DNA of 64,000 nucleotides from a phage. The notes beneath the pieces are model-generated. The model worked only from the letters and a program-made list of their open reading frames with translations, made no database searches and was not told the DNA's origin. The number at the start of each line of letters is the position of its first letter. Position 1 is the stretch's first letter. Below, one piece after another: positions 2,584 to 16,046 of this stretch. The stretch is taken from the sequence record PZ379075.1; one strand, given 5' to 3'. The translations under genes were made by a program, and so were the position numbers.

Positions 2584-2969
2584 GCTTAATCTTTCTCCTG
2601 TATTGTGCCGTAGTCATGCCTATGGTCATAATCTATCTGATGCTTTAAATCCTTCCTATAAGCCTCGCTATGAGGCTTTTTTCTTTTCTAAGGTGATTGT
2701 ATACCTTACTCCCTTTTAGCTCATTGTGATGCGTTATAGGCCGCTTGTTATCGCTTTACAAGCCTTTTCCTATGATGTATCACGTTCGCCCGCTCTTTTA
2801 CCTTCCTATAGTGAAAAAGTTTAAAATATTTTGTTTTACCCTATTGCATCCCTCACTGATTAATGTATACTTCATTTCATCGGGTACGATGTAAAACATA
2901 CAAGGCAAGGAAACTTGCCCCGCTCTTTAAAAATCAGGCTAGAAAGTGAAAATATTCTTAAAAAGAGTA

Positions 2970-2998
2970 TTGACACCGAAAACAGCCTGATATATAGT
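2970..2998 (+). promoter_or_regulatory. strong sigma70-like promoter (TTGACA - 17 nt - TATAGT)
   Basis: TTGACA at 2970-2975, spacer CCGAAAACAGCCTGATA, TATAGT at 2993-2998. Confidence 0.6.
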
Positions 2999-3602
2999 GA
3001 GCATAGTCAGCGATGACTTAAAAAATCCCGCTCTTTAAAAATATGATTTGTCTTACGGGTGGCGGCGACGTCATTACTATAAGGCGCTCAGTTAATCGGT
3101 AGAATTGATTCCTGATTCATACGTGACGCAGGCGGACAATAAGCAATATCAATAAGCCTTATTTGTTCGATACTTTCAAAAGATTAATGCTTGAAAGCGC
3201 ACTAGATTCCCTGAAAGACAAATCAGACTTATCATCTTGCCCTTTCGCATAGATTCACGCGAGATAAGGGAAAGGAATTAAAAGAAGATGATAAAAAGAG
3301 TTGCAAACGTGGTTAAAGTAGTCCATACTAACCACAAGTTAGCAAAACATCGCTAACTAGTTCCCAAATCAACGTATCGCGGGAAAGGTGGCACATAGTG
3401 CAGCGATTAGTTCAGGTGTAGGCGGCCTGTTAATGAATCAGTAAGCCTTCAATGTGACAGTGATTAGCAGACACTTTAAAAGGCTAAACGCTCTTTAACA
3501 ATATGAGTCATAAGTTAAGCCTCACCGCTTAATCTTCAATCAAATAAAGCTGATTGATATATCCTCCCAATAGCGGGAACGACGAAAAAGATTAAAAAGC
3601 GG

Positions 3603-3631
3603 TTGACAGCGAAAACAACATGATTCATAAT
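3603..3631 (+). promoter_or_regulatory. strong sigma70-like promoter (TTGACA - 17 nt - CATAAT), paralogue of promoter at 2970
   Basis: TTGACA at 3603-3608, spacer GCGAAAACAACATGATT nearly identical to promoter at 2970, -10 CATAAT at 3626-3631. Confidence 0.6.
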
Positions 3632-4552
3632 GAGCACTCACTAAGCAAATCATCGCTTCAGTGAAAAGCGTAACAACGGCTAACAGTTGCATAGTGTGAG
3701 AAAGCACACTGATAGATTTACCGCTCTTTAATAATTTAAACATTCTCCTATATCGGTTGAATATGCTTGATGATAATAACCATCGGAAAGCATACCAGAT
3801 AAAACGGCGTAAAACTCCCTAAATTATCAGGGTAAACAGTTTTACATTCCCTTACTGGAAACGTCACCATTGATAAACGGATTCATTGAGTACACGCAAA
3901 GACTTAAGCTAATCGCCCACGGTTAAGGGTAGCGGCGGTCATCGCTAACATGGTGCTACGGTGAAAGAAGTTAATCAGGGTAGGCAATCCCGACGAATTA
4001 ACGCTCAATTGAGAGCGGCGGTGAATGGTTAAAAAGTGGCAAATTGCTATTTAACAATAAGGTTTAGTGTGAACGTTTACGATGTGAACGGCTTGAGATT
4101 CATCTTATGATGAAAGTACATAGTCGGTTTATGTAGTAAACTTGCCGAAAGATATAAAACGTCGGAACATTAGACGGTCAATGACTCTTTCGCAATAGTA
4201 TCCCGTAGTGGGCGATGACTAGCGATTGAGAGTTGATATAAAAGGATAGGCGAGAGCGAAAGCAAAGTAAACGATATTGCCGACGGTTACAATAACGTAA
4301 CTAATTAGAGTCGGACGCACTGCCTTATTGTGATGATTGATCATCGCTATCAGGTCGGCTTCGTTTATAGCGACTAATTAAAGATACCAGATGAAACATC
4401 ACGGATAAGGGGGCGGCAAGGTTAACTCCTGATAAGACCGCCCCGCTTACCTATAACTACTTACAATGAGTGGTTATAGTTAAGTCAATAGTGACTTGAA
4501 TTGCTCATAGAGAGCGGGGCAATAGCGCCCTTACAATTGAAAGGTGAATATT

Positions 4553-9419: not shown

Positions 9420-9634
9420 ATATGAACATTGAAAAGAAGGTTGTTGACGAGGCTGTTCAGTTACGATCTCTTGAAACACATGATGTATTTGTGTGGGGAG
9501 GCAGTCTGTTTCAGAAATCTGCTTATGCTGTAGAGGGCGGGGTTCGTTGTTTTAATATCTTCAACAATGAGATGCAAATCCTTCCTAACTTCGCTCATGT
9601 TAATAAACTTATCCACCTTTCTATATATCAATAA
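9416..9634 (+). CDS. small paralogous-family protein (member 4)
   Basis: Motif THDVFVWGG; ATGA start/stop overlap. Confidence 0.5.
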   Translation: MNMNIEKKVVDEAVQLRSLETHDVFVWGGSLFQKSAYAVEGGVRCFNIFNNEMQILPNFAHVNKLIHLSIYQ

Positions 9635-9644
9635 GGGCAATTAG

Positions 9645-9863
9645 ATGGAAATTAAAGTAGTTGATTATCCTAAATATGCAAATGCAGAGGACGTTAAAGG
9701 TGGTGATGTTTTCTCTTATGATAAACGTTTCTGGCTGATGCTAGAAGATAAAACCCCTGATGGTTTGTGTAAGGCTGCTAACTTGAGCAGTGGTTCTGTT
9801 GAAGTCTTCGGTCTATCAACCACTGTTATGCCACGACCTGATCTGTGTTTATCCCAAAAGTAA
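9645..9863 (+). CDS. small paralogous-family protein (member 5)
   Basis: Motif GGDVFSYD. Confidence 0.55.
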   Translation: MEIKVVDYPKYANAEDVKGGDVFSYDKRFWLMLEDKTPDGLCKAANLSSGSVEVFGLSTTVMPRPDLCLSQK

Positions 9864-9871
9864 CACCGACT

Positions 9872-9976
9872 TATAGCCCTTGTGTTTATCAGAGGGCTAT
9901 GTGAGGGTGTTCCTCATTAACTTATTAATTCAGGCATATGCCACACCGCTAGGGAGAGCTTGCTCGAACATCCGGT
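9872..9976 (+). other. Conserved about 105-bp structured noncoding element, copy 1 (second copy 15307-15417)
   Basis: Shared blocks TATAGCC..hairpin..GGGCTATGTGAG ... GCTAGGGAGAG ... CTCGAACATCCG in both copies. Confidence 0.5.
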
Positions 9977-10374
9977 GTTAGACTAAAACCTGTTAATTTT
10001 CGAAAGACTTTCCGATATGTAGGGGTACGTATTGGTTTGGGATTCAGGAGACTTCCTAGGGGTAGGAAGTCTTCACCAGTTGGAATAAGAGATAGCTCTA
10101 GAACCTGAACTCTTAGGCAGAGAAGGTCGGCAATGAGTACGCGGTCAGAATTAGCCTCCTGACTAGGGCTATCCCTTATATCAACTGGCAATAATGCCTC
10201 CACTAACAAAGAGAGATAGGTATGAAAGTATCAACCAAACGTATGAACCGCCCTGAACGTATGGATGCAGTAGCTAATGGTGCTCTGAAACTGGAAGGCT
10301 TTTGGATTCATGCAATGTCAGCCATCCGTAACAAGCAAGGTAATTGGACGTATAACAGTTAACAAATAAAGAGA

Positions 10375-10404
10375 GGCTGCCTTCGGGCGGCCTTTGTTGT
10401 TTTA
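10375..10404 (+). terminator. rho-independent terminator
   Basis: GGCTGCC-TTCG-GGCGGCC hairpin plus TTTGTTGTTTT. Confidence 0.65.
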
Positions 10405-10447
10405 ATTAAGGGACAACTCTTACTTAAACTAACAAGAGGAAGCTAAA

Positions 10448-10624
10448 ATGTCTAAGCAAACAATCAAACATACGCAATCTGGTTACTCTTATGTCAACTC
10501 TCCTTGCTGCGGTGCTCGTATTAATCTGGTTAAGGAAGAGGTTCGTATCGTTCAGCGTGGCGCTACTGTTGTTCGTTCATGCTGTGTCTGTGGTAATGAT
10601 ATTTTTATCAAAGGTAAAGTATGA
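10448..10624 (+). CDS. small Cys4 zinc-ribbon protein (58 aa, below track cutoff)
   Basis: Translated by hand: MSKQTIKHTQSGYSYVNSPCCGARINLVKEEVRIVQRGATVVRSCCVCGNDIFIKGKV; stop overlaps next ATG. Confidence 0.4.
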   Translation: MSKQTIKHTQSGYSYVNSPCCGARINLVKEEVRIVQRGATVVRSCCVCGNDIFIKGKV

Positions 10625-10845
10625 TTATCGTTCGCTCTGAGCCTAAAGATAACACTTTTGGTAGCCTCCGTAATGGTGATGTGTTCTCTCTAGAGATAGA
10701 TGGGGATACAAAACCTCCTTTATATATGAAGGTTATGCACAGACATGCTATCTGTATAAATAATCCTGAAACAAGATTTACGTTTGACAGAAGTTGTCCT
10801 GTCAAATTTTATCAAGCTACCCTAAACGTTAGGAGAGTAGGATGA
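10621..10845 (+). CDS. small paralogous-family protein (member 6)
   Basis: Motif NGDVFSLE. Confidence 0.5.
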   Translation: MIIVRSEPKDNTFGSLRNGDVFSLEIDGDTKPPLYMKVMHRHAICINNPETRFTFDRSCPVKFYQATLNVRRVG

Positions 10846-11093
10846 AAAACTTCCAAGCTGCACCAATAACTAAAGTGATTGCAGTTAATGATGTGATGAT
10901 GGCTGTTCCTCTGAACACTCGTTATATTGCAATTGACAAGATGGGATATGTATGGGCTTGGAAGATCAAGCCTAGTTATAACGCACTGTTTGATGAGTTT
11001 GTTTGTACTGGTACTTACAGTCCTACATTCTTGGGTTTGTTTAGTGAGTTTGATGGTCAGTATAAAATCATCACACTCCCTGCTTGTGCTTGA
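10842..11093 (+). CDS. hypothetical small protein (83 aa)
   Basis: ORF coupled to preceding gene; family membership unclear. Confidence 0.4.
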   Translation: MKNFQAAPITKVIAVNDVMMAVPLNTRYIAIDKMGYVWAWKIKPSYNALFDEFVCTGTYSPTFLGLFSEFDGQYKIITLPACA

Positions 11094-11273
11094 GGTTATT
11101 ATGTTCAAGTGGTTTAAACGTTTCTTCCATCTCCATGATTGGGAGACAATAAAAGAAGTTCGTTTACACATATATAATGAGATTGGTCAAATAGAAGACA
11201 CAGGTACTCGTTATATACTTCGATGTAAAACATGTGGTCATATCACCAAGCGAGATATGATCTAAATAATTCT

Positions 11274-11349
11274 GCGCTCTTAGCTCAATGGATAGAGCAG
11301 TAGCCTTCTAAGCTATTGGTTACAGGTTCGAGTCCTGTAGGGCGCACCA
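11274..11349 (+). tRNA. tRNA-Arg (anticodon TCT)
   Basis: Hand-folded cloverleaf: acceptor GCGCTCT/AGGGCGC, D-stem GCTC/GAGC, anticodon loop CTTCTAA with TCT at 11307-11309, T-arm ACAGG-TTCGAGT-CCTGT, discriminator A, encoded CCA. Confidence 0.85.
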
Positions 11350-11489
11350 CATTTAGGGCTAGTATGGGTGCGGCACCAGAGTTAGTGTATCCCTGTTGAG
11401 GCAAGTGCTTTTATAACAGTGGGAATTACTTTCTTAGTGAGCTTCTGGTTCGATTCCAGATAGTCCACCAAATCTAATAGGAGGTAATT

Positions 11490-11789
11490 ATGAGTTGGGG
11501 TGGTGTAATATCCTTAATCTGTATCTTCCTTGTCTGCATAGCCCTTACAGGCTGCGTACAGAGCCGTCCTGATGGATGGTGTGCAGTAGCAGTGGAAGGT
11601 GTTTGTGTTTCTCGCTGGTATAAGGGTGAGAAGATTCCTTCTGGTGAAATTGATATGCGATGGAACGGAGCAACCTGTTCTAATGCTAACCCTTCTATCA
11701 ACGAAGAGAAGTCTACGCCAGACAATGTTGTGATTGATACAGCGTTGTGGTGTGGTGGCTCTGTAACAACAACCGGTAAGGAGTGGTGA
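11490..11789 (+). CDS. putative Cys-rich lipoprotein (99 aa)
   Basis: Signal peptide with lipobox LTGC (ICIFLVCIALTGCVQ); overlapping minus ORF 11474-11827 considered spurious. Confidence 0.5.
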   Translation: MSWGGVISLICIFLVCIALTGCVQSRPDGWCAVAVEGVCVSRWYKGEKIPSGEIDMRWNGATCSNANPSINEEKSTPDNVVIDTALWCGGSVTTTGKEW

Positions 11790-11790
11790 T

Positions 11791-11988
11791 ATGAATTACA
11801 CATCCACAAAGGTGTTAATTGATTCAATTAATAGCTCCTCAGAAGCTGTACAGGAGCGTTTAATACAAGATGTTAGCAATGACATTAAGTTCTTTGTTAA
11901 GAGCCGCCTGTTAGGTTCTAAGGCTTATTACAGAGCTAAAGCAGAGCTTACAAAGAGGGTGTTTCTTTTACATGGTTTGGTATATTAA
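11791..11988 (+). CDS. hypothetical small protein (65 aa)
   Basis: ORF from track. Confidence 0.35.
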   Translation: MNYTSTKVLIDSINSSSEAVQERLIQDVSNDIKFFVKSRLLGSKAYYRAKAELTKRVFLLHGLVY

Positions 11989-11997
11989 GGAACTTAT

Positions 11998-12219
11998 ATG
12001 AAACTAGACTCTAAGCAGTCACTTAAAACCGTTGAGCTGTCCACGCTGCCAAACGGAAGTATTTTTGGTCATGATAAACACTTCTGGATTAAAACAGACA
12101 TCATAGACGATGGATATATCACCTGTGTCAATCTTTGGAACGGTTCAGTGGATGGTTATCGCCCTAGCGCAAAGGTAGTCCCTCAGCCTGATGCTAAGGC
12201 TGTAGGTTTAGTTTACTAA
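11998..12219 (+). CDS. small paralogous-family protein (member 7)
   Basis: Motif NGSIFGHD. Confidence 0.5.
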   Translation: MKLDSKQSLKTVELSTLPNGSIFGHDKHFWIKTDIIDDGYITCVNLWNGSVDGYRPSAKVVPQPDAKAVGLVY

Positions 12220-12370
12220 GGAGTTCATATGAGCTGTTATGGTGGCGGTGAAGTGTGTGATGACGACGACATGGAATCCAATGGTACATGCCCTGACTGT
12301 GGGTGTGAGACATTTGATGGAGTGTCAGTATACCCTGCCTGTAGTTACTCACCAGTGATCTGTAAAACAT

Positions 12371-12628
12371 GTGGAGATCAACCTTGTGACCAGTCTTGTT
12401 AGTATGTTAATAGCCTATCTGATAGGATCAGTAGTATCAGGTGTTCTGATTAAGATTATAGATGTTAAAGGTAATCAGTGTTTCAGAGGTTGGGATGGTG
12501 AGCCAGACCTCGGAAAGATAGCAGCTATGGTTTTCTTGTGGCCTATTATTGCTGTACTATTTATAGCACTCGTATCATGGGCTGCTCTTTGGGATTTCAT
12601 CCTTCCTAACAAAAAGTATGAGGACTAA
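12371..12628 (+). CDS. small membrane protein with two predicted TM helices
   Basis: Hydrophobic segments LVSMLIAYLIGSVVSGVLI and AAMVFLWPIIAVLFIALVSWAAL; real start may be internal. Confidence 0.45.
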   Translation: MEINLVTSLVSMLIAYLIGSVVSGVLIKIIDVKGNQCFRGWDGEPDLGKIAAMVFLWPIIAVLFIALVSWAALWDFILPNKKYED

Positions 12629-12629
12629 T

Positions 12630-13293
12630 GACTGAAGAATTTTTAAAGTGGTTTGGTGATACCTTCAAAGAGTATCTATTCTCTCCAGAAGACTTTGAAG
12701 AACTGAAAACCTACACTTGGTTGGCTTGGAGAGATAGCCGACGAGAGATGAATAAGTAATATCGTGAAGGATTCTTACGAGAGTCCTTTGAGATAGGACT
12801 TCAGATCTCCTATCAAACTAACATTCATGTAACTAGCCCATAAGGGCGTTACCCTTTAATAACCCAGCCCACTAAGGGGGCGGGAGTTTAGTGCTGGATT
12901 AGCATAACGCTTATTCCTACAAAGGCAACCGATTGTTAGGTCTTACATGCAATATTAATTAATAGGATAAGGGAGGATTCGTCCCCTCCCCCTATTCATA
13001 AACTATTAGGAGAGTACATTAGCTGATTAGCTGTGGAAGGTAGGCCGATATCTACAGCGTGGCCCAGAGCTAGTGTACTCCCCAATAACTTTAGGGTAAA
13101 TGTGGAACAACCTTTTAATTACAGGTATAGCTTATGGGACTCAGTAATGCAGAGTCTACGGTAAAGCAGTCGCCCGTGGTCGAATGACCGTATGCCCATT
13201 GGATGCATTCCTTTGGTGATGGCTAGGGAGTCCGAGCGTAGGTTCGAATCCTACACCTGTAACCAAATTGAATAATAGCTAATTGGAGGATGT
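12630..13293 (+). other. ORF-poor structured region with a tRNA-like 3' module (T-arm GTAGG-TTCGAAT-CCTAC, acceptor, CCA ending at 13265)
   Basis: Canonical T-loop and CCA at 13238-13265 but no clean 76-90 nt cloverleaf found; several hairpins (e.g. GGGAGG...CCTCCC at about 12971-12995). Confidence 0.3.
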
Positions 13294-13605
13294 ATGAAAG
13301 CACGAAGAACTATATGGACTCCGATGCAGATTGAAAATCTTCGGAGACTAATCAAAGAGTACTCGGTTCAAGAAGTTGCTCAGATTATGAATGTAACGGA
13401 GAATGCAGTTAACGCAGCTTGTACTAAATTCGGAATATCAAGAGCTTCAATCCGAGTTAAATGGTCTGAAGAAGAAGACCAGTTCCTTATCCGTAATGCT
13501 GGGTTCATGTCTATTCAGAGAATGGCTGACATGCTCGGTAGAAGTTATGCTGCTGTACAGAACAGAGCATGTATGCACCTTAACATTAGCCTCAAACTTA
13601 AATAG
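13294..13605 (+). CDS. putative helix-turn-helix DNA-binding protein (103 aa)
   Basis: Two HTH-like segments (VQEVAQIMNVTENAVNAA and SIQRMADMLGRSYAAVQNRA). Confidence 0.45.
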   Translation: MKARRTIWTPMQIENLRRLIKEYSVQEVAQIMNVTENAVNAACTKFGISRASIRVKWSEEEDQFLIRNAGFMSIQRMADMLGRSYAAVQNRACMHLNISLKLK

Positions 13606-13613
13606 GAATCAAT

Positions 13614-13868
13614 ATGAAAGTTAACGAATTGAACAAAACTATCAAGACTGTGAAACTCCACACTCTGAAGAAGGGCGATACCTTCCGGCTGGAAGAGAAC
13701 GGTCCAATTCATATGGTCTGTACTGCGGCATCTACTAATTGGGTAGAAGTTGCACGAGATCGAGTCGTGTGTGTCAGACTGGAAGATGGACACTTAAGTG
13801 GCCCCGTTGAGGGCATCTCTGTTATTCCTGTTAAGGTTGAAGCTAACGTTATTAAGGATTCTAAATGA
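13614..13868 (+). CDS. small paralogous-family protein (member 8)
   Basis: Motif KGDTFRLE. Confidence 0.55.
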   Translation: MKVNELNKTIKTVKLHTLKKGDTFRLEENGPIHMVCTAASTNWVEVARDRVVCVRLEDGHLSGPVEGISVIPVKVEANVIKDSK

Positions 13869-14116
13869 AGATTACCCACAAGAAAGAAGAAGTGACCACG
13901 ATTGATCTCAACTCCCTCCCCAGCGGAGCAGTGTTTAAATTCCCTGAGAGTGCTACTCTCTATGTTAAAGGGTCTGTGTCTGAAAGTCCTAATGTAACCG
14001 TTAACTCTGATCGAACAATTACTCTTCGTCTATCCGATGGTAACGTAACAGCACCTTCTATCTGGTGCCGAGTTGTTCCTGTATCAGCAGAACTTTTGGT
14101 GGATAATACGCAATGA
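13865..14116 (+). CDS. small paralogous-family protein (member 9)
   Basis: Motif SGAVFKFP; ATGA overlap. Confidence 0.55.
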   Translation: MKITHKKEEVTTIDLNSLPSGAVFKFPESATLYVKGSVSESPNVTVNSDRTITLRLSDGNVTAPSIWCRVVPVSAELLVDNTQ

Positions 14117-14358
14117 AAATCATCCCAAAGAAAAAGGATAATACGGTACGATTGGAAACAATCATTCCCGGAAACCCTTTCGTGGTTCAGAACGGAAGTG
14201 CCTCTCCTCAGTATTACATGAGGGTTGAAAATGCTTCTGGTAACATCCGTATAGCCAGTGGTTGGGTTCCTGTGGTAAACCTTTCCACAGGTGTGTTATC
14301 TGTTAAAGGTCTTGATGATCAGGTAGAAATGATTCGTATGTCAGTGGTTCAGGAGTAG
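14113..14358 (+). CDS. small paralogous-family protein (member 10)
   Basis: Motif GNPFVVQN; ATGA overlap. Confidence 0.55.
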   Translation: MKIIPKKKDNTVRLETIIPGNPFVVQNGSASPQYYMRVENASGNIRIASGWVPVVNLSTGVLSVKGLDDQVEMIRMSVVQE

Positions 14359-14612
14359 TGCATATGAGCATTATTAACATTAAAGTTAAAGACAAAGAGG
14401 AAAAAATCCTCCGCGTCAGAGATCTAAATATGTCAGATGTGTTCACTCTCCAAGAGTGCCAAAATCAAAAGGTTTATATGATGACAGCTAAAAGCAGGGG
14501 TTGTCAACCTGCTGGAGCTGTTAACCTAGGCACTGGAGAACTACGTGTCATCTCTGGTGATATGGTTGTTGGTGAGAAGTTTATTAAGGCTGAAATCATC
14601 TTAACTTCGTAG
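14358..14612 (+). CDS. small paralogous-family protein (member 11)
   Basis: Motif MSDVFTLQ. Confidence 0.5.
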   Translation: MHMSIINIKVKDKEEKILRVRDLNMSDVFTLQECQNQKVYMMTAKSRGCQPAGAVNLGTGELRVISGDMVVGEKFIKAEIILTS

Positions 14613-14736
14613 GGAAAACAAATGAGACGTAAAGCATATTCTTATGACGATATGATTAACCAGAAAGGCTTCGGTCAACGACAGCCTGACGGTTCAATTA
14701 TCTGGTTCGTAAACGGACAGAAAAAGGTAGCTAAAT

Positions 14737-14790
14737 AAGCCCTCTTCTCTCCTCCTTTTAGTACTATGACGCCTCTCTGTGGGCGGCCCG
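14737..14790 (+). repeat. Repeated motif AGCCC..CTC..TTTTAGTACTATGACGC (second copy; first copy 6731-6775)
   Basis: 17-bp core TTTTAGTACTATGACGC identical at 6741-6757 and 14756-14772. Confidence 0.6.
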
Positions 14791-14793
14791 ATT

Positions 14794-14830
14794 TGCGTAG
14801 GGAATTCCCTCTACGCAGCCATAATTTTTT
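14794..14830 (+). terminator. hairpin with T-tract (terminator-like)
   Basis: TGCGTAG-GGAATTCCCT-CTACGCA followed by AATTTTTT. Confidence 0.5.
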
Positions 14831-14844
14831 AAGGAATTTCCCCT

Positions 14845-15078
14845 ATGTCTAAAGTAAGCGCAATCGATGCAATCCGTCAACCGTTTCAGTTCCAATCCAA
14901 ATCAACCCAAACCTTCAGCGAACCTAAGCAAATTCGCTTGGGTGGTACAGAGAAGACTGTGTTTGATCTGGCTAAAAACAAGAGCGTTACCGTAGTTGAT
15001 GGTGGCACTCTGGTTAACGTTTCTCATCGCATCCGCACTGGCAAAACTGCCAAAGATCGTGCTAAGAAAGGTGAGTGA
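14845..15078 (+). CDS. hypothetical protein (77 aa)
   Basis: ORF from track. Confidence 0.45.
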   Translation: MSKVSAIDAIRQPFQFQSKSTQTFSEPKQIRLGGTEKTVFDLAKNKSVTVVDGGTLVNVSHRIRTGKTAKDRAKKGE

Positions 15079-15293
15079 TGATAACACTTGTGTCTGTAGT
15101 TTACAGATTACACTATCGCCTAGATAAAGGAAAATCTTATAAATGCAAGAGTAAGACAGGGAATCTATGCTCTGTAGAGAACAACTCTGGTCAATGGGTG
15201 AATGTTCCTTGTTGCTGGTTCAGGAAAGATTTGACTAGCAAAGAGATTGACGAAATTCTTAGTGATGATTTTGTAAAATCAGGTGATTTTTAG
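15075..15293 (+). CDS. hypothetical protein (72 aa)
   Basis: ORF coupled to previous. Confidence 0.4.
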   Translation: MMITLVSVVYRLHYRLDKGKSYKCKSKTGNLCSVENNSGQWVNVPCCWFRKDLTSKEIDEILSDDFVKSGDF

Positions 15294-15306
15294 TTGTAGT
15301 AACGCC

Positions 15307-15417
15307 TATAGCCTTCTTCGGAGGGCTATGTGAGTTATTCTGACTCAACTAACCTAATCTTAATATATTTCCCGTATGGGGCCGATGCTAGGGAGAGGAA
15401 CATTCCTCGAACATCCG
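15307..15417 (+). other. Conserved structured noncoding element, copy 2
   Basis: Homologous to 9872-9976 (see above). Confidence 0.5.
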
Positions 15418-15683
15418 TCGGATAGATATTTTAAGAGCAGGTTATCCACAGATATTGGGTAATATCTTTTTGTATTTAAAGCTTGACTCTTTTCGGAGAG
15501 TCCTTTTTTAAATTCAACGAGAGGAAATATGTCTAAATTAGATTTAAAACTGCTAGCAGCAGCGGTAGTGATTTGTGCACTAGCACTGGTAACGCAGAGA
15601 ACATCTGGATTTATTCAGTGTTTCTTTTCTGGGCAATCCACTTATCAGTGGGTTATTGACGAGTGTAAACAACAGGAGTAAGT

Positions 15684-16046
15684 ATGAATACACGTCCCAT
15701 CAAGGGCAACGTTAATATTGAAACTCTGAACAAGGTTGCATCAAACCTCGGTGGTATGTCCAACGAAGAGCTTGAGCAAGAACTTGCTTGGATTGCAAAT
15801 GGTATCAAGGTTGCTAAAGGTAAGATTGCTCGTGAGCAAAGTAACATGAAAGCTCATAAGTATCTAATCCATCGTGCAAACGTGTTACCGGATCGGGTTG
15901 TACATCTTGCCCGTAAAAACTACGCAGAAGCAAAGAAAGCTCTGGAAGAAGCTGAGTTCCAGAAGCATCAATTTATGAACAACTATCGAAACTTCCGAGA
16001 TATTCTTTATATTCGTAAGTCGATTGAGTTGATTAAAAACCAATAG
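15684..16046 (+). CDS. hypothetical protein (120 aa), helical/charged
   Basis: ORF from track. Confidence 0.5.
   Translation: MNTRPIKGNVNIETLNKVASNLGGMSNEELEQELAWIANGIKVAKGKIAREQSNMKAHKYLIHRANVLPDRVVHLARKNYAEAKKALEEAEFQKHQFMNNYRNFRDILYIRKSIELIKNQ

Follow-up and report, generated by a model that had tools for sequence, protein, structure and literature searches.

RNA elements that antagonise Rho and riboswitches that attenuate transcription fold within a leader or spacer and determine whether polymerase gains access to the genes downstream, and very few systems, such as put and EAR, are known in which transcription elongation is controlled by RNA only. The put RNAs of phage HK022 (putL and putR) are two similar copies of a folded RNA in a phage early operon that is transcribed by the host RNA polymerase. 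Each measures ~70 nucleotides (nt), forms two stems in a V shape and enables the polymerase to resist intrinsic as well as Rho-dependent terminators located downstream (PMC9378689), suppressing termination in cis via the zinc-binding domain of the RNA polymerase beta' subunit. Conserved intergenic motifs that recur amid small early open reading frames (ORFs) are known from T4-type phages as PeSL (promoter-early stem-loop) cassettes, which combine an early promoter with a stem-loop or terminator, occur in many copies and mark the exact points at which the gene content of related phages diverges (PMC2839356, PMC4122927). Repeated, related hairpins with internal loops are also found between early cistrons, as in the early RNase III sites of T7 and the leader stabilisers of the T4 gene 32 type. 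Here we describe an element that occurs twice in a 64,000-nt stretch of phage DNA (sequence record PZ379075.1; the whole stretch is hereafter called the window), from a phiEco32-like podophage of the genus Kuravirus. On comparative sequence evidence, the two copies are paralogs of one previously undescribed structured RNA module of ~125 nt, and this module is real, conserved, strand-specific and restricted to phiEco32-like and 7-11-like phages.

The initial annotation of the window had reported a duplicated element of about 105 bp, in which a TATAGCC...GGGCTAT hairpin is followed by GTGAG, GCTAGGGAGAG and CTCGAACATCCG at similar spacing, and both copies, at 9872-9976 and 15307-15417, indeed contain these blocks with no change of sequence or order. 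Exact matches are found for GGGCTATGTGAG (9894 and 15323), GCTAGGGAGAG (9948 and 15387) and CTCGAACATCCG (9963 and 15406), and zero-mismatch occurrences of the three long blocks are limited to the two copies, with the exception of the core GCTAGGGAG, which is also found at 13222 and 37214. Pairwise alignment, one of the checks proposed with that annotation, places the similarity beyond an AT-rich background: the local alignment of copy 1 with copy 2 scores 35, against 14.8 +/- 2.2 (maximum 27) for 2000 dinucleotide-preserving shuffles (z = 9), and no other part of the window matches copy 1 as well as copy 2 does. A covariance model built from five copy-2-type sequences only finds copy 1 of the window at 49 bits (E ~1e-8) and recovers every copy 1 at ~46-64 bits (E ~1e-8 to 1e-12), and a combined model run with filters off identifies exactly two strong copies in the window, copy 2 at 136.9 bits and copy 1 at 107.7 bits. 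The proposed extent was slightly too short, the conserved unit spanning 9860-9984 and 15299-15428. Copy 1 starts with the TAA of the preceding ORF, and copy 2 starts 6 nt past the stop of ORF 15075-15293. Both copies lie between genes, behind runs of small + strand ORFs, in keeping with the intergenic placement after gene blocks that had been noted.

When folded separately, copy 1, copy 2, copy 1 of phage SU7 and the copy of Salmonella phage SE131 yield the same predicted architecture (Table 1), of which the hairpin and conserved blocks first annotated, although present, are only a part. In this five-helix fold, P1 is a hairpin of 10-12 bp whose lower seven pairs, UAUAGCC/GGCUAU(G), are invariant, and P2 abuts it with zero spacer, such that P1 stacks on P2. 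An unpaired, G-poor linker of 15-25 nt, always with UAAC within it, leads to P3, a small hairpin abutting P4. The 6-bp P4 encloses the hairpin P5 together with an almost invariant, symmetric 7x7 internal loop (CUAGGGN/RAACAUC), and the element ends at its 3' side in a short (A/U)UAGA tail. Folding combined with covariation across related phages, a further check proposed at the outset, drew on 33 instances (29 distinct) at 20 loci from four groups, namely Kuravirus, Suseptimavirus and Nieuwekanaalvirus (Gordonclarkvirinae), and Moazamivirus (Grimontviridae). Standard pairs occupy 96.7% of the pair cells, a share that drops to 37-44% once the 3' partners are shifted by 1-3 columns. Among the 29 distinct sequences, 12 of the 32 pairs show changes on both sides, a count that overstates the number of independent events because the changes trace to a handful of lineages, and one or more positions in each of P2, P3, P4 and P5 display two to four pair types (e.g., UA, GC, CG and GU at one P2 pair, or AU, CG and GC at one P4 pair). 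With the same fold in four lineages, the structured-RNA half of the original interpretation is supported.

G.U pairs are abundant in this fold, and copy 2 folds better than its shuffles on the + strand (z = -2.27) but not on the minus strand (z = 0.08). The frequency of G.U pairs and the poor minus-strand fold together assign the structure to the mRNA-sense (+) strand, a fold of single-stranded DNA of that strand being formally possible. A dimeric DNA operator is made less likely by the variable length of the P1 loop (4-15 nt). Within the internal loop, two positions vary, and they hold only A/G, C/A or A/A and never a Watson-Crick C/G, which fits a non-Watson-Crick pair stacked on P5, a geometry derived from general knowledge of RNA, and the invariance of the unpaired nucleotides suggests that they face a specific partner.

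Copy 2 alone displays a sixth, long-range helix (P6), in which linker positions 15353-15369 pair with 15425-15441 and thereby close a three-way junction around P3 and P4/P5. P6 is included in the minimum free energy (MFE) fold of the whole copy-2 spacer, its duplex of -7.4 to -11.2 kcal/mol is kept in the same register in 11 of 11 distinct variants, and a double compensatory change separates E. coli phages (UCUUAA/UUAAGA) from Salmonella phages (UCUUUU/AAAAGA). A similar closing helix sought in copy 1 was no better than in shuffles. The entire copy-1 spacer (9860-10235, 376 nt) folds at -126.5 kcal/mol (z = -5.16 relative to shuffles), and the entire copy-2 spacer (15297-15535) at z = -3.67. 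Kissing or pseudoknot pairings of the internal loop with the P2 loop or with the linker, as well as an 11-nt receptor motif, were sought by eye, and none is conserved between the copies.

Table 1. Positions of the element, its substructures and associated features in the window
Feature	Position	Strand	Content or basis
Copy 1	9860..9984	+	Sequence, MFE fold, model (107.7 bits), pair counts
Copy 1, GUAAC	from 9860	+	UAA is the stop codon of ORF 9645-9863
Copy 1, P1 hairpin	9873-9900	+	
Copy 1, P2 hairpin	9901-9917	+	
Copy 1, G-poor linker	9918-9932	+	
Copy 1, P3	9933-9942	+	
Copy 1, P4	9943-9948 paired with 9973-9978	+	
Copy 1, internal loop	9949-9955 / 9966-9972	+	CUAGGGA / GAACAUC
Copy 1, P5	9956-9965	+	
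Copy 1, UAGA tail	9979-9983	+	
Copy 2	15299..15428	+	Sequence, fold (z = -2.27), model (136.9 bits), pair counts
Copy 2, GUAAC	from 15299	+	
Copy 2, P1	15307-15330	+	
Copy 2, P2	15331-15347	+	
Copy 2, linker	15348-15369	+	
Copy 2, P3	15370-15381	+	
Copy 2, P4	15382-15387 paired with 15416-15421	+	
Copy 2, internal loop	15388-15394 / 15409-15415	+	
Copy 2, P5	15395-15408	+	
Copy 2, AUAGA tail	15422-15426	+	
P6, long-range helix (copy 2 only)	15353..15441	+	MFE of whole spacer, duplex energies, compensatory change
Double DnaA box, directly 3' of copy 2	15431..15450	+	TTAAGAGCA-GG-TTATCCACA; sequence match
Intrinsic terminator after copy 2	15485..15509	+	GACUCU-UUCG-AGAGUC and U run; terminator scan, alignment of 17 homologs
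Rest of copy-1 spacer	9985..10221	+	Alignment of 8 phages
Intrinsic terminator past the 46-codon ORF downstream of copy 1	10372..10403	+	Terminator scan
Possible third, partial, diverged copy (5' half only)	12756..12870	+	Model R2, filters off

Both copy regions are carried by ~100 GenBank phages at 85-100% identity. Kuraviruses encode two copies each, and in EcoN5 a tandem duplication of gp93-gp91-element-gp90-gp89 (L034, 6028-8400) has produced a third full copy, which is an extra copy 2. Phages SE131 (bases 1-81,999 of 89,910 searched) and 7-11 have one copy, at the copy-2 position, and zero copies were detected in either genome half of GAP52 with filters off. When IMG/VR (with two patterns) and metagenomes were scanned for the element by pattern, the matches comprised only contigs of phiEco32-like or 7-11-like phages along with chance matches in GC-rich coding DNA, which were rejected by the covariance model. 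The element is absent from current RNA family databases: when the 4227 models of Rfam 15, among them riboswitches, ribozymes, tRNA and sRNAs, are applied at the gathering threshold, only a tRNA-Arg at 11274 passes and nothing is reported at either copy, and even at E <= 10 across 9600-15700 no match overlaps either of them. No mention of the element was found in the literature retrieved for these phages, a set that did not cover the primary phiEco32 papers. A tRNA or tRNA-like identity was rejected, as neither ARAGORN nor the Rfam tRNA model matches the copies and no stem joins their 5' and 3' ends.

The early and middle genes of the window are encoded on its + strand, and both copies are located on the sense strand. 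Copy 1 lies between homologs of phiEco32 genes 113 and 112 and heads a 358-nt non-coding gap, and copy 2 lies between homologs of genes 91 and 90, heading a 235-nt gap beyond which a conserved COOH-NH2 ligase, amidoligase, glutamine amidotransferase and ATP-grasp cluster is found. In phiEco32 and in Salmonella phage 7-11, the early genes form a long operon transcribed by the host sigma-70 RNA polymerase from promoters at the genome end (PMC8948821, PMC4331800), and we propose that the element is transcribed by this polymerase within the corresponding long early polycistronic transcript. The best sigma-70-like sites in the window (636, 2970 and 3603) are far upstream of the copies, and no site for the promoter of the phage sigma factor gp36 (TAATGTATA) is present near either copy. 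The 72-amino-acid ORFs upstream of copies 1 and 2 are unrelated to each other, as are the small ORFs downstream, and the protein encoded upstream of copy 1 is weakly similar to SE131 gp128 (E = 0.001 over 25 amino acids). Copy 2 is followed, in order, by a double DnaA box, a small AU-rich hairpin, an intrinsic terminator and the start codon of the next gene (15529), with the terminator situated ~60 nt past the element and 19 nt before that start codon. Its homolog is annotated as a terminator in SU7, and the entire layout from copy 2 to the terminator is kept in E. coli and Salmonella phages despite unrelated flanking genes. Since the interval between this terminator and the start codon leaves no room for a promoter and contains no match to a promoter consensus, expression of the downstream cluster must depend on read-through.

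Each copy heads a long untranslated spacer of the early operon, begins at or within a few bases of the preceding stop codon and has a terminator downstream, and neither is followed by a recognisable promoter ahead of the next genes. The explanation we favour, with a probability of roughly 0.3, is that the element is a cis-acting RNA that sustains elongation by the host RNA polymerase across the untranslated spacer and past the terminator that follows. The invariant internal loop and lower P1 stem would then be contact surfaces for a conserved partner, either the host RNA polymerase itself or an elongation or termination factor conserved between E. coli and Salmonella infections. Acting in cis where ribosome coupling ends, the module would target the very polymerase from which it has just emerged, and the outcome would be anti-polarity or antitermination, akin to that of HK022 put in logic but not in architecture. 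Similar to put, the element occurs as two related early-operon copies that lie upstream of terminators and would be made by the host polymerase, and it is a folded RNA with conserved irregular helices and no evident dedicated protein gene. The location differs, however, as put is found near promoters while the element follows stop codons directly, at a distance of 6-12 kb into the operon, and the resemblance in shape is partial, with only P1-P2 being reminiscent of two abutting hairpins and no sequence similarity established. A likeness to Rho-antagonising RNAs and attenuators is also apparent in the position of copy 2 directly before a terminator, although no conserved alternative pairing with the terminator arms is seen.

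Several observations weigh against a role in elongation. With ~125 nt and five helices (six in copy 2), the element differs in architecture from the two-stemmed put. An ORF and ~390 nt intervene between copy 1 and its terminator, and three strong terminator-like hairpins upstream of copy 1 (5475, 6803 and 6833) have no element before them, so that read-through at these sites needs another explanation. GAP52 is related and shares the downstream gene cluster, and it manages without the element. Finally, the covariation is derived from an alignment fitted to the model and from few independent lineages (copy 1, copy 2 and Salmonella).

The 5' boundary of the element is sharp. The TAA within its first five bases (GTAAC or ATAAC) is usually the stop codon of the upstream gene, which differs between phages and is gp113-like, gp116 or SU7_105 for copy 1, and gp91, gp93, EP335 ORF95, SU7_89 or SE131 gp128 for copy 2. 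At least four unrelated upstream sequences are joined to the element at copy 1 and at least seven at copy 2, and the median pairwise identity of 0.84-0.94 inside the element compares with 0.49-0.54 in the upstream 90 nt, with a break exactly at GTAAC. Copy 2 of SU7 (L002, 9976-10114) has a long P1 loop of the copy-1 kind (CCCTTGTGAGTATCAGAGGG), which implies sequence exchange between the copies. Taken together, this exchange and the break in homology at GTAAC indicate that the element is also a recombination junction for early gene cassettes, which under the elongation hypothesis would be a by-product, the conserved module serving as a homology patch where upstream gene cassettes swap. The element thus resembles PeSL both in being repeated amid small early ORFs and in the exact coincidence of the motif with divergence in gene content. 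Unlike PeSL, it is present in only 2-3 copies, its compensatory changes indicate selection on an RNA fold, and it is without a consensus sigma-70 promoter, the single match being a weak one (9/12) in copy 2 (15340-15369) that is absent from copy 1 and from the Salmonella phages.

In the double DnaA box beside copy 2, the consensus box TTATCCACA is preceded, at 2-nt spacing, by a second, weaker box. By BLAST, 5423 of the 5426 complete E. coli genomes contain a match to the surrounding stretch (15424-15470), in inverted orientation and over 35-46 nt, immediately before nrdD. The host sequence there reads CCCAATTTCTGTGGATAACCTGTTCTTAAAAATAT followed directly by GGAGCGATCATG, and the reverse complement of the phage sequence reads CCCAATATCTGTGGATAACCTGCTCTTAAAA-TAT. 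The double boxes themselves are tTTAAGAGCAggTTATCCACAg in the phage and tTTAAGAACAggTTATCCACAg in the host, the latter listed as the nrdD DnaA site in an E. coli chromatin immunoprecipitation sequencing study (PMC11317965), and the common flanks extend beyond the boxes. Upstream of nrdD, TGTGGATAACCTG is conserved across Enterobacterales, whereas the CCCAAT flank is common only to E. coli and the phage; the double-box core is also conserved in Salmonella phages, whose variant of the stretch includes ...CCTATTCTTTT.... In contrast to its host counterpart, the phage double box is located in an early spacer, inverted relative to transcription and outside the shared two-copy element. A + strand transcript of this stretch would be antisense to the nrdD leader, and the stretch may act as a DnaA site on phage DNA or as an antisense RNA. 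As the 3' partner of the linker in P6, the weak-box half covaries with that linker, so a constraint at the RNA level applies to this half at the least. Overall, the likeness suggests that these phages interact with the DnaA/nrdD circuit, which is previously unreported. Across the whole window, 32 sequences lie within one mismatch of TTATCCACA, against 18.7 +/- 4.0 expected, a number reached by none of 100 shuffles.

The main rival to control of elongation, itself possible if tentative, is that the element punctuates the processing and stability of the early transcript, RNase E cutting the AU-rich linker or RNase III a helix, such that P1-P2 would become the protective 3' end of the upstream message and P3-P5 a protective 5' structure of the downstream message. 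The study of 7-11 invokes intergenic hairpins that affect transcript stability (PMC8948821), and the intercistronic location in a long polycistronic transcript, the two or three paralogous copies per genome, and the unpaired, G-poor and AU-rich linker of 15-25 nt between stable hairpins would all be in line with such a role. However, a 14-nt invariant internal loop and an invariant stem maintained across two phage families are not normally needed for nuclease or stabiliser sites. RNase III requires roughly 22 bp, and its T7-type sites are irregular duplex hairpins of ~20 bp or longer; P4 (6 bp), the 7x7 loop and P5 (3-5 bp) together provide ~16-18 pair-equivalents, which would be short for the enzyme, and P1 has 10-12 bp. 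The T7 sites and T4 gene 32-type leaders are also single irregular hairpins, in contrast to a multi-helix element with an invariant 7x7 loop and a conserved linker. We consider more doubtful that the early transcript releases a stable trans-acting RNA scaffold, i.e., a small RNA (sRNA) or protein sponge, which for copy 2 would extend to the terminator at 15485 and, being antisense to the 5' untranslated region of host nrdD, regulate anaerobic ribonucleotide reductase. This reading is attractive for copy 2, which is backed by a Rho-independent terminator with a U tail, the stretch complementary to the E. coli nrdD leader (~-59 to -9) would form a duplex of -50 kcal/mol, compared to -23.3 +/- 3.7 for shuffles, and the match includes the E. 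coli-specific CCCAAT flank; in addition, AGGUUAUCCACAG is invariant in Salmonella phages too, and the spacers fold as a whole (z = -3.7 and -5.2). Yet such an sRNA would have no conserved promoter, the upstream sequence being unrelated between phages, part of its "seed" would be sequestered in P6, and the copy-1 spacer has only weak, terminator-like matches in the host, none significant. Selection at the DNA level can also explain the sequence identity, given that the double DnaA box is bound in vivo at nrdD (PMC11317965). A composite scenario appears unlikely, in which the element would represent a new class of polymerase- or termination-factor-binding RNA acting at the end of ribosome coupling and architecturally unrelated to put, and copy 2 would in addition serve as a host-directed RNA pairing with the nrdD leader or as DNA titrating DnaA, linking early transcription to the control of host deoxynucleoside triphosphates and replication.

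A role at the DNA level only, as a recombination linker or as a single-strand hairpin signal of a DnaA-associated replication origin, is in our view quite unlikely. The sharp mosaic junctions at the 5' edge, the tandem duplication in EcoN5 and the copy-1 type P1 loop in copy 2 of SU7 fit recombination, the double DnaA box adjoining copy 2 is of the high-affinity type, and G.T pairs in single-stranded DNA leave room for a single-strand DNA signal. Compensatory changes and one-strand G.U pairing would nevertheless be unexpected for a mere homology patch, copy 1 is without a DnaA box, and the GC skew is unchanged at either copy. The order of features at copy 2, i.e., a junction with invariant unpaired bases closed into a three-way junction by P6, then a terminator, a ribosome binding site and conserved metabolic genes, is also that of a riboswitch-like aptamer, which would set terminator read-through before the amidoligase, glutamine amidotransferase and ATP-grasp cluster. 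This is very improbable, however, as the aligned E. coli and Salmonella phages show no conserved antiterminator pairing with either terminator arm, the MFE fold forms the copy-2 terminator independently, and copy 1 precedes an unrelated 46-codon ORF without an adjacent terminator; moreover, the pattern scans revealed no relatives of the element in bacteria or in other phages, and it has no Rfam match even at the relaxed threshold. The probability that the element is a small protein-coding gene or a chance similarity of AT-rich DNA is close to negligible. In both copies of the window, a frame that begins at the GUG within GUGAG stays open up to the UAG within UAGA (26 and 31 codons), but copies 1 and 2 do not read the conserved blocks in a common frame, early stops interrupt the frame in copy 2 of SU7 and in Salmonella phages, and no ribosome binding site is present; the alignment z-score of 9 and the E-values of the model exclude chance. 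In several phages (e.g., Bas93_0087, SeKF_80 CDS0124, MN03 and Bas91), the element is overlain by short genes annotated as "hypothetical protein", and these calls are probably spurious, as they share no conserved reading frame.

If the element does carry polymerase through the spacers, phages would have solved the problem addressed by HK022 put a second time, with an unrelated architecture, and in a well-studied model phage for RNA polymerase regulation, phiEco32, in the form of a compact and strongly conserved element directly after stop codons. Even if its role lies in processing or stability, it provides an annotatable non-coding feature for Kuravirus and Moazamivirus genomes, accounts for several "hypothetical protein" calls and marks the junctions of early gene cassette swaps.

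The remainder of the copy-1 spacer also contains structured features. Two hairpins with GGGG loops (10012-10035 and 10047-10074, with apices GUAGGGGUAC and CUAGGGGUAG) have stems that vary from phage to phage in a compensatory manner, conserved single-stranded stretches accompany them, a 58-nt segment (~10100-10157) is restricted to some of the phages, and the hairpin GGCAAUAAUGCC precedes the ribosome binding site of ORF 10222-10362. UAGGG-type motifs occur five times in this spacer. Further upstream in the window, a region of ~2 kb (2584-4543) is devoid of + strand ORFs of at least 50 amino acids and contains the promoter-like sites at 2970 and 3603 (11/12 matches each) together with a perfect phage-sigma motif (TAATGTATA) at 2861. 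This region probably represents the early promoter region, with a leader of ~900 nt.

A weak additional match to the element (16.7 bits, E = 0.06 for the window) heads the third long gap of the early region, at 12756-12870. It comprises, in order, GUAAU (with UAA as the stop of ORF 12628-12759), a hairpin, UGAG, a second hairpin, AACUAAC and a small hairpin, and it is without the P4/loop/P5 domain. A weak third match is also found at the same junction in phiEco32 and MN05, and the first 60 nt are invariant in six phages. This sequence is possibly a diverged paralog, an assignment in which we place low confidence. Part of the third long intergenic region (12856-13090) is 78-85% identical to sequences of unrelated N4-like coliphages of ~72 kb (PhAPEC7, Bas96, phi G17 and pSb-1), which suggests another conserved non-coding element exchanged among phage groups. 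Immediately beyond, a tRNA-like sequence (13120-13268) that is missed by default ARAGORN and by Rfam is present in a subset of related phages. It displays a perfect 7-bp acceptor stem (UACAGGU/ACCUGUA) followed by ACCA, as well as a canonical T arm (GUAGG-UUCGAAU-CCUAC), and ARAGORN in intron mode assigns it to tRNA-Val(UAC), the D arm being poor and the insert 49 nt long. The sequence also contains GCUAGGGAG, the same 9-mer as in the internal loop of the element.

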